Origin: Clostridia bacterium
Lineage (GTDB): Bacteria > Bacillota > Clostridia > JAAYHZ01
NCBI GenBank assembly: GCA_050950825.1
Contig: JBMNIH010000003.1
Coordinates: 333,117-397,116, forward strand
Reading direction: 5' to 3'
DNA length: 64,000 bases
The notes under the pieces were generated by a model. That model ran no database searches. It was not told where the DNA came from and saw only the letters and a list, made by a program, of their open reading frames with translations. The position numbers and the translations under genes were made by a program. The first letter of the stretch is position 1, and every line of letters starts with the position of its first letter. This document shows positions 2,877 to 37,347 of the stretch, piece by piece.

Positions 2877-3557
2877 TTAAATCTTATACTCGTGAGAAAT
2901 GCATTTACGCATTTCCATGGCCGCATTGTAAATGGTCATGTTTTTCATAAACAATCCGGAGGAGCCCACTACAAAAATATCGGCACCGGCATCTCTCATA
3001 TGCCGCGAGTTTTCAAAGCTGACGTTTCCGTCAACCTGTATTTTTATATTAGGATATCCATGATCCAGAAGAAACCACTTTGTTTTCGCGATTTTATTCA
3101 AGCTGTACGGAATCATTTTTTGACCGGCAAAGCCCGGATTAACCGTCATAATCAGTATGAAATCCACATCATCCAAAATTTCCGTTATGGAAGTGACCGG
3201 AGTTGCCGGATTTATTGCCACACCCGGACACGCACCCATTTTTCTGATTCTTTCTAGCAAACGTTGCAGATGATACGTGGTTTCATAATGTACGGAAACC
3301 AGATCTCCCTGTTGAATATTAAAAAAATTCATCTTGTCTTCCGGACGTTCAACCATTAGATGGATATCAAAGGGTATGTCGGTTTGTTCCCTGATTTGGT
3401 CCATAACACAGGGCCCTAAGGTATAATTTGGCACAAACTGTCCATCCATAATATCAAAATGTAAATACTCAATTTCTGCAGCTTGCAGTTCTTTTAAATT
3501 ATTCTGCAAGTCAAGAAAGTTTGCGCACATCATTGATGCAGATAATTCTCCTGCCAT
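2877..3557 (-). CDS. Ribulose-phosphate 3-epimerase family protein (pentulose-5-phosphate 3-epimerase)
   Basis: RPE-type motifs (LHFDIMDG, VNPGFAGQ); start moved to the ATG at 3557, which has AAGGAG 7 nt upstream. Confidence 0.8.
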   Translation of the reverse strand: MAGELSASMMCANFLDLQNNLKELQAAEIEYLHFDIMDGQFVPNYTLGPCVMDQIREQTDIPFDIHLMVERPEDKMNFFNIQQGDLVSVHYETTYHLQRLLERIRKMGACPGVAINPATPVTSITEILDDVDFILIMTVNPGFAGQKMIPYSLNKIAKTKWFLLDHGYPNIKIQVDGNVSFENSRHMRDAGADIFVVGSSGLFMKNMTIYNAAMEMRKCISHEYKI

Positions 3558-3614
3558 GATATTGCTCTCCTTTTTCAAACGTTATTTAAGATATATTTCG
3601 AAATTCTTATTTTC

Positions 3615-5300
3615 TTAGTCAAAATGCGGTTCTTTATTCATTTTTTGCAGTAAATGCATTACATTATTTCCACCCTTGCCGAAATAATCATGCAGTTTTT
3701 CGTATTCTTTAAAACAGGAATCATAAATCTCCCGTTTATTCGAATCCGGTTCGTAATACTTATTACTTAAATGTGACATATGCGATACGGCATCTTCAAG
3801 GCAGTCATAGCCGCCATTTTCCTTCCCTGCCGCCAGTGCTCCCATGATTGCCGAGCCCAATGCAACGGTCTGGGTGGATTCGGCAATCCGGATTCGTATT
3901 CCCAGAATATCTGCAAAAATTTGCATAATGGTAGGGCTCTTTCTTGCAAGTCCTCCGCACGCGTATATTTCATTTATCGTCATGCCGGCATCGGTAATGG
4001 CTTTTACAATCATTTTCAAACCGTAGGCAGTGGACTCAATCAAGGCTCTGTATATATGCTCGGTGGTCGTTGACAATGTTATCCCTACAATTAACCCTGA
4101 CAGGTCGGTATTCTGAAGTATGCATCTATTTCCGTTCAGCCAATCCAATGCCAACAAGCCCGATTTTCCCGGAGGTATTTTTTCCACCTTCCCATTCATG
4201 ACATCAAATATCGATATGCCCTTTTCTTCCGCTTCAATATAATATTTGTATGGAACCAAGTTGTTCATGAACCATTCAAAAATATCGCCAACGGCCGACT
4301 GTCCGAAAATATGACCGTAATATCCCGGCACAAAGATGTCCTTGGCCATGCCTATTGCACCCGGAACCATAATTTCCTCTTTACTGAGCAGCATAAACAC
4401 ACCGGATGTGCCGATGACCAAAAGGGCGGTACCCTCCTGCAGGACTCCAAGGGCCGGAAATGCAACCGGACTGTCGGAGTTACCCATGCAAACAGCAGTG
4501 CCTGCACGCAATTTGGTTTTTGCAGCCATTTCTTCCGTAAGGCCGCCTGCTCTTGTAAAGAAAGATTGGACATGCGTTCCCAGCTTGTCTTCAACTATTT
4601 TTTCCAGTCTTGCGTCGATTGCTTTAAAAAATTCTCCCGAAGGGAAACCTCTGACAGGGTCCCATTGAGCATGCAGACATGCGACCGTGCTATTGCGTAC
4701 TTCTTTTCCCGTCAGAAGATAAACAAGCCAGTCCGAAAGCTCCGTGAACCTGTACGTCGCATCGTAGATCATAGGGGCTTCTTCCAATATCTCCATTGCC
4801 TTGGGATACAGCCATTCCGCCGAAACCTTGCCGCCGCAATGCCGTAAAAATTTCTGCCCCGTTTCTTCCGCAATCCTGTTTAAGGTGTCCGCCTGCTTTT
4901 GTGCACCATGGTGCTTCCACAGCTTAGGCCAGCTATGAGGATTATTTTTAAATTCATCGTGCATGCAAAGAGGCATATAGTTTTTATCGACAGGTATGAT
5001 GGTGGAAGCCGTAGAATCCACGCCGATACCTATAATCCGGTCCGGATCCACGTTGCTCTTCTGCAGTATGTCCCGCAGCAAGCTCTCAAGGGCTTCCATA
5101 TAGTCTTTTGGATTCTGTAGCGCATAGCCTGCAGGCAGCTTTATTTTTGTATCCGGCAGCATGTCATCTATGACCGCGTCCTGATAACCCACAATGGAAA
5201 CGGCAACTTCATCGCCGGTGTCTACGTCGACCAATACGGCGCGAGCCGAAAGGGTACCAAAATCCATGCCGATTGAATATCTTTTATCCATAAAATTCAT
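3615..5300 (-). CDS. araB: FGGY-family ribulokinase (AraB-like)
   Basis: 561 aa; closely matches my recollection of Bacillus AraB (IGIGVDSTASTIIP, NPHSWPKLWKHHGAQ, ALDWLNGNR). Confidence 0.8.
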   Translation of the reverse strand: MNFMDKRYSIGMDFGTLSARAVLVDVDTGDEVAVSIVGYQDAVIDDMLPDTKIKLPAGYALQNPKDYMEALESLLRDILQKSNVDPDRIIGIGVDSTASTIIPVDKNYMPLCMHDEFKNNPHSWPKLWKHHGAQKQADTLNRIAEETGQKFLRHCGGKVSAEWLYPKAMEILEEAPMIYDATYRFTELSDWLVYLLTGKEVRNSTVACLHAQWDPVRGFPSGEFFKAIDARLEKIVEDKLGTHVQSFFTRAGGLTEEMAAKTKLRAGTAVCMGNSDSPVAFPALGVLQEGTALLVIGTSGVFMLLSKEEIMVPGAIGMAKDIFVPGYYGHIFGQSAVGDIFEWFMNNLVPYKYYIEAEEKGISIFDVMNGKVEKIPPGKSGLLALDWLNGNRCILQNTDLSGLIVGITLSTTTEHIYRALIESTAYGLKMIVKAITDAGMTINEIYACGGLARKSPTIMQIFADILGIRIRIAESTQTVALGSAIMGALAAGKENGGYDCLEDAVSHMSHLSNKYYEPDSNKREIYDSCFKEYEKLHDYFGKGGNNVMHLLQKMNKEPHFD

Positions 5301-13859: not shown

Positions 13860-15365
13860 TTACATGTCTTTTAACCTCATGGTGGGAAATAGTATGACAT
13901 CGCGGATGGAATAGGAATCGGTCAAAAGCATAACCAAACGGTCGATACCGATCCCAAGTCCTCCGGTCGGCGGCAGGCCGTATTCCATGGCCAGCAAGTA
14001 ATCCTTGTCCTCCATGTTGGCTTCCTCGTCACCGGCTTGTCGTTTTCTCATCTGGTCGTCAAAACGCTCTTTTTGATCAATGGGATCGTTCAGCTCGCTG
14101 TACGCATTGCCGTACTCTCTTCCGCATATAAAAATTTCAAATCGTTCCGTTAATCCCGGTCTTGAATATTTCTTTTTCGTTAAAGGAGAAATCTCAATGG
14201 GATAATCGTAGATGAAGGTAGGTTGTATCAAATGATGCTCTACCAGCTCTTCGAAGGCCAAAGCCAACGCTTCTCCCCAACCGATATTCCCTTCGGTTTC
14301 GATTCCTTTGTCCTTTAACGCCGCCTTAATCTCTTCGGGATCACTCAATTTGTCGAAGTCAATACCGCCGTATTCTTTCACCGCATCCAACATGGTCAAT
14401 CTGCGCCAAGGCGGCGTCAAATCCACGGACACGCCTTGGTAGGTGATTTGGCATGTACCGAGAACCTTTTGGGCTACGGTGGATACCATATCTTCCGTCA
14501 ATTTCATCATATCATGATAATCGGCGTAGGCTTGGTACAGCTCCATCATGGTGAATTCCGGATTGTGCTTTACCGATATCCCTTCGTTTCGGAACATTCT
14601 CCCGATTTCATAGACCCGTTCCATGCCGCCGATAATCAATCGTTTTAAATACAATTCGGGAGCGATACGCAGATACAAGTCCATATCCAAAGCATTATGA
14701 TGGGTTATAAACGGTCTTGCCGCCGCTCCTCCCGGAATCGGGTTCAAAATGGGCGTTTCCACTTCCAAGAACTCTCTATCATCCAAAAATCTTCGGATTT
14801 CTTTAATTATTCTGCTGCGGGTAACAAAAATATTTTTCACTTCGGGGTTCACCAGCAAATCCAAATAACGCTGGCGATAACGCAAATCCGTATCCTTTAA
14901 ACCGTGCCATTTTTCCGGTAAGGGCTGCAAGCTTTTCGACAGCATGACAATGTCGCTGACCTTAATGGAGATTTCACCCTTTTGGGTCTTGAACACTTCC
15001 CCTTTGACACCGACGATGTCGCCGATATCGTATTTTTTAAATTCCGCATACTTTTCTTCTCCCACATCGTTCATGCGGATATACAGCTGGATTTTGCCGT
15101 AGCGGTCGTGCAAATCGCAAAAGGAAACCTTCCCCATTCCTCTTTTCGACATCAGCCTTCCGGCGACGGATACCGTTTGTCCTTCTCTTGTTTCAAACTC
15201 TTCTATAATCTCGCTGCTTTTTGCCGTTACTTCATATTTGACTTGTTCAAAGGGGTCTTTTCCCGTCCTTTGCAATTCCAAAAGCTTTTCTCTTCGCACT
15301 CTTAGTATTTCATTTAAATCTTCTTGCTGAATGTTATTCTCTCGAATTTCGTTATTCTCGGTCAT
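13860..15365 (-). CDS. lysS: Lysyl-tRNA synthetase (class II)
   Basis: 501 aa; OB-fold plus class II core; GGAGGAG RBS. Confidence 0.95.
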
Positions 15366-15437
15366 TCCATACTCCTCCGATAAACTTTTCCTATTTTATC
15401 ATTATACCATCATCTTGGGACGTCTAAAAGGTTCGGT

Positions 15438-15470
15438 CAAAAAAAAAGAAGGCAAGCCTTCTTCTTTTTC
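15438..15470 (-). terminator. Bidirectional-type intrinsic terminator downstream of greA
   Basis: Hairpin AAGAAGG-CAAG-CCTTCTT flanked by an A-run and a T-run. Confidence 0.6.
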
Positions 15471-15473
15471 AGG

Positions 15474-15950
15474 TTACTTGCCGATACCCAGAATCTTGAA
15501 TTTGACAATTCCGCCGGGAGTCATGACTTCCACCGTTTCGCCCACCTTTTTGCCCATAAGCGCTTTTCCGACAGGCGATTCGTTGGATATACGATTCTTT
15601 GACGGATTAGCTTCGGTGGAACCGACGATCCTGTATTCCACTTCTTCGTCAAATTCCAAATCAAGGAGCTTGACGATGCTTCCAATGCTGACCGCATCGG
15701 TGGTAATGTCTTCATCAACGATTATTTGTGAGTATCTTAATGTATCTTCAATCTCCGCAATTTTTGCTTCGACCAAGGCTTGCTCGTTTTTAGCTTCGTC
15801 GTATTCGGAGTTTTCCGAAATATCTCCGAAAGACAGTGCATGTTTTATTCTCGCGGCTACCTCCCGGCGTTTTGTACTTTTCAGGTATTCCAATTCTTCT
15901 TCCAATTGACGCAACCCTTCAGGAGTTAGATATACTTCTTTTTTTAGCAT
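15474..15950 (-). CDS. greA: Transcription elongation factor GreA
   Basis: 158 aa; coiled-coil N-domain and FKBP-like C-domain. Confidence 0.95.
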
Positions 15951-15972
15951 GTTTATTTCACCCTTCTTTTAA

Positions 15973-16003
15973 TCAATCAAATAAAAACCCGTTTACCGGG
16001 TTT
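15973..16003 (-). promoter_or_regulatory. Terminator-like hairpin in the greA leader (putative attenuator)
   Basis: Minus-strand RNA AAACCCG-GUAAA-CGGGUUU followed by UUUAUUUG, between a consensus promoter and the greA RBS. Confidence 0.45.
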
Positions 16004-16026
16004 CCTTCAAAACAACAGGCACATTC

Positions 16027-16055
16027 ATTATAGAAACGCATGAGCAGTTTGTCAA
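16027..16055 (-). promoter_or_regulatory. Consensus sigma-A promoter upstream of greA
   Basis: Minus strand TTGACA (16050-16055), 17-nt spacer, TATAAT (16027-16032). Confidence 0.6.
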
Positions 16056-16166
16056 TATCTTTCCTAGTAATGCTTGTTGTTTCAGCCGGATTTTACCGGA
16101 CCTCGAACCGGTTTCAATTTCTATATATATATTCACTTAATCGACAATTATACAGTCAATAAGACT

Positions 16167-17663
<1,497 letters not shown>

Positions 17664-36722: not shown

Positions 36723-37214
36723 TTAGCCTTTTGCTTCGTCGCACAGCTTATGCTGAATCCTGTTTTCCAGCTCTTCCATGTTAAAGCCTGCGGCTAACAT
36801 CAATTCGCTGTACAATATCTTTTTTGCACTGTTTAACATCTTCCGTTCCCCGGTAGACAATCCTTTTTCCTTTTCACGCACCATTAATGTGTTTACCACA
36901 TCCGCCACTTCTTCGATGTCTCCGGTCTTCAACCGGTCCATGTTTTCACGGTACCTTTTGTTCCAGTTGGTATTGTCGTCAACCTTTTTAGGCGAGAAGA
37001 AATCAATCACTTGATATGCGCGATTTTTAGAAATAATACTCCGAATACCGATTTCATCCGAATTGGAAATAGGAATCATGACCTTCATGTCTCCGAAGGG
37101 CATCTTTAAAACATAGTATTCCTTTACTTCCCCTAATATCTCTTTCTTTTCGATTTTCTCAATTTCACCCGCTCCGTGGAGAGGGTATACGATCTTGTCT
37201 CCAATTTCAAACAT
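36723..37214 (-). CDS. carD: CarD-family transcriptional regulator
   Basis: Start at MFEIGDKIVYPLHGAG (ATG 37214, GGGAGGA RBS); CarD/TRCF RNAP-interacting domain. Confidence 0.8.
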   Translation of the reverse strand: MFEIGDKIVYPLHGAGEIEKIEKKEILGEVKEYYVLKMPFGDMKVMIPISNSDEIGIRSIISKNRAYQVIDFFSPKKVDDNTNWNKRYRENMDRLKTGDIEEVADVVNTLMVREKEKGLSTGERKMLNSAKKILYSELMLAAGFNMEELENRIQHKLCDEAKG

Positions 37215-37347
37215 ATTATCCTCCCGCAGTAATATATTTAATCCTATCCATACATCATTTACTGCCGGATTACCATTAAACATTCTTATTATACCTTAAT
37301 CATGGCAAAATGTCAAAATGCCACAAAATCGTACACCCGAAGCTCTA

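Follow-up and report, generated by a model that had tools for sequence, protein, structure and literature searches.

A candidate GraL-like leader terminator behind an exact-consensus promoter of greA in a Clostridia bacterium

In an uncultured Clostridia bacterium, the leader of greA, which encodes a rescue factor of RNA polymerase, is probably (probability about 0.6) a leaky terminator, or attenuator, resembling that of the E. coli leader RNA GraL, and would release an RNA of about 43 nt. In order of transcription, its elements are a perfect sigma-A promoter, a hairpin, a U tract and a ribosome-binding site (RBS), all located between guaB (the IMPDH gene) and greA in a 64-kb stretch of DNA, here called the window. 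From these elements we infer that RNA polymerase terminates at the hairpin, that it does so partially, and that GreA may feed back on its own expression. The more surprising result is the promoter itself, as the exact consensus TTGACA-17-TATAAT is found upstream of greA and nearly nowhere else in the loci listed.

The greA leader in the window

All elements of the leader fall in the guaB-greA intergenic region (Table 1). The encoded protein is identical to one found in public MAGs labelled Clostridia bacterium, where it is named GreA (protein look-up). Since greA has a 3' terminator and the downstream gene lysS has a promoter-like site of its own, greA is probably monocistronic. The spacer between the two genes (15366..15473) is 108 nt long in the window. 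In L088, a 71% relative, a separate promoter-like site precedes lysS (3168..4692), and behind it, 113 nt ahead of the start, come a strong hairpin and U tract; this suggests a separate lysS leader element in that lineage.

Table 1. Features of the greA locus in the window (all on the minus strand).
Feature	Position	Strand	Evidence or remark
guaB (IMPDH gene)	16167..17621	-	upstream of greA
guaB-greA intergenic region	15951..16166	-	216 nt; holds all leader elements
Candidate second greA promoter, extended -10 TGTATAAT	16147..16154	-	directly 3' of guaB stop; weak -35
greA promoter, TTGACA-17 nt-TATAAT (sigma-A/sigma-70 consensus)	16027..16055	-	12/12 match in promoter scan
-35 hexamer TTGACA	16055..16050	-	
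-10 hexamer TATAAT	16032..16027	-	
Predicted transcription start G16020	16020	-	7th nt after -10 hexamer, by position rule
U-rich 5' leader segment CCUGUUGUUUUGAA	16006..16019	-	core UUGUUUU(UUU) conserved in relatives (alignment)
Leader hairpin GGAAACCCG-GUAAA-CGGGUUUUU	15983..16005	-	terminator scan and fold
U tract UUUUUAUUUGAUU (U5AU3)	15975..15987	-	scan and sequence reading
RBS GAAGGGUG	15959..15966	-	8 nt before ATG at 15950; downstream of hairpin
greA CDS	15474..15950	-	158 aa; ORF, Pfam PF03449 (GreA_GreB_N) and PF01272 (GreA_GreB)
greA 3' terminator GAAAAAGAAGAAGG-CUUG-CCUUCUUUUUUUUU	15439..15470	-	fold; directly after stop codon
lysS promoter-like site	15428..15401	-	promoter scan; separate from greA promoter
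lysS	13860..15365	-	downstream of greA

The 64-kb window has two copies of the exact promoter pattern, against an expectation of 0.02. The end of the -10 hexamer lies 76 nt before the greA ATG and the predicted start of transcription 70 nt before it, in agreement with the initial annotation, which had placed a perfect TTGACA-17-TATAAT about 70 nt upstream of greA. All relatives in the alignment retain the two hexamers at a spacing of 17 nt, with an A at the position equivalent to G16020. The extended -10 next to the guaB stop may mark a further greA promoter, upstream of the first, reminiscent of E. coli, where greA has several promoters; CTGTATAATTG at this site is kept in the 82% relatives but not in the 75% relatives.

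The core stem of the leader hairpin (AAACCCG/CGGGUUU) pairs 16003..15997 with 15991..15985 and contains four G-C pairs in 7 bp. With 7-9 bp in all and a 5-nt loop, the stem-loop is within the range of intrinsic terminators (about 5-14 bp, loop 3-8 nt). Its energy is -10.6 to -12.1 kcal/mol (z = -2.2 against shuffles). The sequence 3' of the hairpin in the terminator scan is AUUUGAUUG, and UUUUUAUUUG, directly 3' of the stem, has 8 U in 10 nt, as does the U tract of an intrinsic terminator. Adenosines stand just 5' of the hairpin, as in terminators of an E. coli study in which adenosines at this place reduce read-through (bioRxiv 10.64898/2026.07.06.736697). The hairpin starts at about +15 to +18 of the predicted transcript, and hairpin and U tract together take up about +16 to +42; 3' ends would be expected at about 15981..15976, giving a leader RNA of 40-45 nt. 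The stem ends 33 nt before the ATG, leaving no space for another promoter before the RBS. The order of promoter, hairpin, RBS and ATG is the placement seen in GraL. The hairpin, its 7-bp core and its position upstream of the RBS, about 35 nt before the start codon, had been described correctly from the outset; its description as GC-rich is half true, given the number of G-C pairs.

In folding predictions, the pair probability of the hairpin core is >=0.99 both in the leader truncated at the U tract and in the full leader, for the window and three relatives. No competing fold or antiterminator was predicted for any of these four leaders, so the hairpin is predicted to form unconditionally. A classical attenuator would be recognised by an alternative structure and a conserved short ORF, and the greA leader has neither. 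In a comparison of leader frames in the window, L170 and L085 (L081 left out), no conserved ORF was found: the frame ending in the stop codon of the loop is open for 47, 23 and 4 codons, respectively, and in-frame starts after the predicted start of transcription are limited to TTG in the window and L170, with none in L085. A permissive Rfam scan of 15300..16500 returned chance-level matches only (E-values 4-9), and nothing above chance was found in 20 related greA loci. A riboswitch, T-box or other curated RNA family was rejected on the lack of any Rfam covariance match and a leader length of just 70 nt. Two intergenic ORFs (minus strand, 47 aa; plus strand, 40 aa) were rejected as leader peptides, as both run across the promoter and lack conservation. 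A role of the hairpin on the plus strand was also rejected: the U tract of the reverse complement is weak, and there is no plus-strand promoter or gene facing the hairpin.

Terminator-like hairpins are by themselves not beyond chance in this DNA (6 in 3 kb, against 3.5 expected), and a loose scan of the whole window gives 226 at <= -7 kcal/mol. The leader hairpin appears to exceed chance through its position and conservation rather than through its structure. It is built like canonical Rho-independent terminators at gene ends, including the 3' terminator of greA itself, with a G-C core stem, a loop of 5 nt, and A and U tracts on the 5' and 3' sides, respectively. Unlike these, it lies within a 5' leader, downstream of a promoter, and is of moderate stability: at -10.6 kcal/mol it falls short of the -14 to -18 kcal/mol seen for the clearest terminators at gene ends in the window. 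Such moderate stability would fit leaky termination.

The U tract of the window contains TTATTT, which fits TTNTTT, the motif recognised by the pause-promoting NusG of B. subtilis (PMC12288461). The interruption of the tract is an A in the window and a G in the relatives, with TTNTTT always kept (TTATTT or TTGTTT). This fit may be treated as a lead rather than a result.

Elsewhere in the intergenic region, a stem-loop ACCGG-UUCGAGGU-CCGGU at 16095..16112 overlaps CCGGUAAAAUCCGG, and its fold does not surpass that of shuffled sequences (z = -0.47). The stem-loop is similar to the leader hairpin (GAAACCGG versus GAAACCCGG), is partly kept in the 82% relatives (CCCCGGTAAATTCCGG), and has its terminator-like score on the plus strand.

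Conservation and survey of greA upstream regions

Among the matches listed in genome and metagenome scans, none was closer to the window GreA than 68% identity. Closer relatives were obtained by exact-protein look-ups, giving four related lineages with GreA 75-82% identical to that of the window. In all relatives whose sequence reaches far enough, guaB is upstream of greA. The four lineages keep AAACCCGGT..ACGGGTTTTT.TTT exactly in the alignment, and the block kept in the relatives is AAACCCGGT-(A/G)A(A)-CGGGTTTTT-(A/G)TTT plus the RBS. The hairpin stem is invariant, with a loop of GUAAA, GUAA or GUGA; the U tract of the relatives is UUUUUGUUU, and the RBS region has the invariant block AAAGAAGGGTG.

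This conservation is far above neutral. Four-fold degenerate sites of greA are 25-35% identical between the window and the relatives and are therefore saturated, versus 75-77% identity in the leader from the -10 to the ATG and 47-68% in the spacer upstream of the -35. As the stem never varies, there is no covariation among the four lineages; an invariant stem amid saturated four-fold sites indicates purifying selection even so. The conservation could instead reflect a role at the DNA level or in protein binding.

Upstream regions of greA were surveyed in at least 80 loci from reference genomes and at least 80 from metagenomes, with simple scripts of our own that search behind any promoter match scoring 10/12 or better for a hairpin with a U tract. 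Start codons of greA were assigned by similarity, taxon labels were taken from record titles, and control intergenic regions were drawn from the same DNA as the greA loci. A promoter followed by hairpin and U tract is found in 24/84 listed greA regions and 2/56 control regions (Fisher p = 1e-4). The enrichment is modest once the comparison is restricted to regions whose promoter scores 10/12 or better (24/63 for the listed greA loci, 2/17 for the controls, p = 0.045). Behind perfect promoters, 29 of the 81 greA leaders among the loci listed carry a canonical terminator-like hairpin. Thus, the terminator is not essential to greA control.

Enrichment upstream of greA extends to other phyla. In Actinobacteria of the Thermoleophilia and Gaiellaceae types, the gene upstream of greA is divergent and the promoter is TTGACG-17/18-TACnAT. 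The leader there is very short: a G+C-rich hairpin (CGCGACGGCGC...GCGCCGCGCG) begins at about +2, and a U tract (UUUUCUUU) stands between it and the RBS; the hairpin lies 19-37 nt before greA (loci L026, L034, L049, L060, L065, L072, L074, L078 and L080). As the upstream gene is divergent, these hairpins cannot be the terminator of another gene. Veillonella greA loci have the layout of the window: behind a perfect promoter, a hairpin with its U tract stands 31-39 nt upstream of the ATG.

Possible mechanism and alternative readings

In E. coli, GraL is made from a strong promoter; 19 nt precede its 11-bp hairpin, the U tract behind the hairpin is interrupted, and the RNAs are 40-60 nt long. Termination is about 66%, and repression needs catalytically active GreA, which in vivo lowers read-through via the leader and not the promoter (PMC2836576, PMC6829880). 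The window leader shares with it the gene, a strong promoter of the sigma-70 type, a short stretch at the 5' end that is unstructured (about 16 nt, against 19 nt in E. coli), one unconditional hairpin, an interrupted U-rich tract, a predicted RNA of 40-60 nt, and an RBS downstream. It differs in the stem (7-9 bp versus 11 bp), in the U tract (AU7GCU2 in GraL), and in having a single exact-consensus promoter where E. coli has overlapping sigma-70 and sigma-E promoters. No sequence similarity links the two, judging from the published features of GraL and the lack of an Rfam match; nor does the hairpin of the window clade appear to share sequence with the hairpin common in other Firmicutes. The resemblance to GraL is thus likely one of design, not ancestry. 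Partial termination, GreA-dependent repression and action in trans are known for GraL of E. coli.

Premature terminators upstream of greA in bacilli and Clostridia have been predicted before by Naville and Gautheret (2010); there, greA/rnk ranks seventh among gene families often regulated by attenuation, and 'a clear antiterminator structure' is reported for each cluster (PMC2965389). By that description, the window leader terminator is of the same element class and logic, although no antiterminator is predicted for it. Thus, a leader terminator of greA is not new in kind, and the claim that the arrangement had not been described for Firmicute greA is not supported. The other part of that claim, a GraL-like arrangement, is supported, as far as sequence can show, by the promoter, the early stable hairpin, the U tract, the conservation and the enrichment. 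In the searchable literature, no experimental work or transcript evidence was found for any Firmicute greA leader.

Under the attenuator reading, RNA polymerase would initiate very frequently at the full-consensus sigma-A promoter and transcribe about 16 nt of U-rich RNA, then the 7-9 bp hairpin and the U5AU3 tract. Some polymerases would terminate at the U tract and release the leader RNA, and the remaining ones would read through 25 further nt into the RBS and greA. The output of greA would be the saturated initiation rate multiplied by the fraction of read-through, and it is proposed that expression is in this way set by the kinetics of elongation and termination rather than by promoter regulation. 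Kinetic inputs could be pausing at the U tract, NusA and NusG, and perhaps, as in E. coli, GreA. In vitro, however, the influence of GreA on the E. coli leader was not reproduced (PMC6829880), which leaves the feedback step uncertain in the E. coli model itself; repression there depends on both the GraL terminator and active GreA (PMC6829880). A 70-nt leader with one promoter, one hairpin and no competing structure would be a simpler test system for direct GreA action. To our knowledge, Firmicutes have GreA only, with no GreB or DksA as competitors, and this absence would remove competing factors from such tests.

The leader hairpin would also stop read-through from guaB, an effect compatible with attenuation. 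That it is mainly the guaB terminator, with the greA promoter happening to sit between the guaB stop and the hairpin, is unlikely. The gene is co-directional, no other same-strand hairpin with a U tract is found between the guaB stop (16167) and the leader hairpin, and the stem-loop at 16112..16095 is followed 3' by A residues rather than U, so guaB has no terminator there. However, a terminator downstream of the greA promoter must act on greA transcripts too, and the same arrangement recurs where the upstream gene is divergent (Actinobacteria) or a different one (Veillonella and others).

It is quite improbable that the hairpin acts post-transcriptionally, as a 5' UTR structure that stabilises greA mRNA or that tunes translation through pairing of the U-rich segment with the RBS. 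In minimum-free-energy folds of the full leader (window, L081 and L170), the 5' U-rich segment does pair near the A/G-rich RBS region and encloses the hairpin, and the actinobacterial hairpins, at about +2, are positioned as is typical of 5' stabilisers. The window hairpin, on the other hand, starts at about +16 to +18 rather than at the 5' end, L085 lacks the outer pairing, and the fold of the whole leader does not surpass that of shuffled sequences (z = -1.45). Conservation of the U tract would also be left unexplained.

Short-leader attenuators without an antiterminator exist, for example that of B. subtilis pyrG. A conditional attenuator of this kind at greA, sensing a signal other than GreA (UTP via the U runs, NusG/NusA pausing or an RNA-binding protein), would be in keeping with a conserved U run at about +6 to +12 and with the constant fit of the U-tract interruption to TTNTTT. 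It is very doubtful all the same, as no competing fold is predicted, the U run lies away from the start of transcription, where reiterative transcription would require it, and greA has no obvious link to pyrimidine supply. Finally, loose terminator-like hairpins are frequent enough in the window (see above) for the structure to be a functionless product of chance, but this is extremely unlikely, as lineages with saturated synonymous sites show 100% conservation of hairpin and U tract.

Exact-consensus promoters and other leader motifs at greA

Of the 163 distinct loci listed, 79 have the exact TTGACA-17-TATAAT no more than 330 nt upstream of greA. The remaining sequence of all these loci has 6 exact matches in 819 kb of strand, four of which lie 400-590 nt upstream of greA on the same strand. 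In the genome set, 58/84 listed loci have exact hexamers (55 with a 17-nt and 3 with an 18-nt spacer). Most of the other 26 are Actinobacteria, and only about five are Firmicutes; for genomes labelled as Firmicutes, the count is 58 of about 63 among the loci listed. Promoter scores in this set are bimodal, with 58 listed loci at 12/12 and just 5 at 10-11. The fraction is lower in the metagenome set (25/74 among the loci listed). Two nominal control regions with a perfect promoter were greA itself, with over-extended ORF starts, and the exact promoter is found in 0/54 true control intergenic regions.

No description of this trait of greA promoters was found in the searchable literature. No natural E. 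coli promoter has the full consensus, as restated in PMC12464699, and the greA promoter trait bears on this textbook statement. The exact consensus being a near-rule at greA of the sampled Firmicutes suggests selection for a saturated or escape-limited promoter at one gene. Gre factors speed escape from escape-limited promoters (PMC12464699). The exact promoter, U-rich initial transcript and early hairpin with U tract might accordingly form a conserved device that measures GreA activity, a possibility put forward tentatively and considered doubtful. Escape from the full-consensus promoter would be limiting and would be accelerated by Gre factors that rescue backtracked initial complexes, and the terminator a few nucleotides later would be a second step sensitive to pausing and backtracking. 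If this were true, greA would read the backtracking load of the cell from its own polymerase, with no dedicated regulator; the window would carry a minimal, 70-nt version of the module, of which most sampled Firmicutes would share the promoter level.

The sole other perfect promoter in the window is at 37288..37316 (minus strand) and drives carD (36723..37214, minus strand; real start ATG at 37214), which encodes an RNA-polymerase-binding factor (Pfam CarD_TRCF_RID and CarD_C). The carD leader can form CCGGCAGUAA...UUACUGCGGG, overlapping the RBS. That this promoter is as conserved as that of greA was ruled out: of five carD relatives, two match the consensus exactly (in one of them the spacer is 18 nt), and the other three score 10-11/12. 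Thus, greA is a special case.

Seventeen Firmicute loci from several classes share a hairpin with the near-invariant base GCACUG...CAGUGC, placed behind a perfect promoter (22-59 nt from its -10) and about 100-250 nt upstream of greA (L001, L002, L003, L005, L006, L008, L010, L015, L023, L025, L033, L051, L062, L088, L092, L093 and L094). The taxa are Clostridia, Desulfotomaculia, Alicyclobacillaceae and Bacillales, and include the 71% relative of the window (L088). The upper stem varies in length and covaries (e.g. U-A versus C-G at the seventh pair). Like the window hairpin, it stands behind the -10 of a perfect greA promoter and has U-rich sequence 3'. However, these leaders are long, with 65-205 nt after the hairpin and often a second motif GCAUAUAUU, and the U tracts are weak (e.g. 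UUUAAAUG), unlike the canonical tract of the window. With such weak U tracts, these hairpins may serve for pausing or protein binding instead of canonical termination. The window leader is not a member of the family, as the core is absent from the guaB-greA intergenic region even with one mismatch per arm allowed. In the window clade, a short canonical terminator seems to take the place of the GCACUG hairpin and 100-250-nt leader of other Firmicutes.

In L035, L052 and L064, and in Veillonella (L046, L056 and L075), GCACUG is replaced by GUGUCA...UG(A/G)CAC; neither hairpin is in Rfam. The long greA leaders of many Firmicutes have a recurring motif between hairpin and RBS, GCATATATT or CATATATTAT (L001, L005, L010, L012, L015, L021, L023, L025, L027, L062 and others), which matches CATAnnnTA, the -10 pattern of sigma-K promoters. 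In Paenibacillus and relatives (L021, L027, L029, L040, L045 and L058), a conserved hairpin GUGAAAAUnUUUCAC adjoins the RBS GACGGGAGA on its upstream side, and a conserved AGTGAATTCA(T/C)(A/T) box is found farther upstream in the leader of the same loci.
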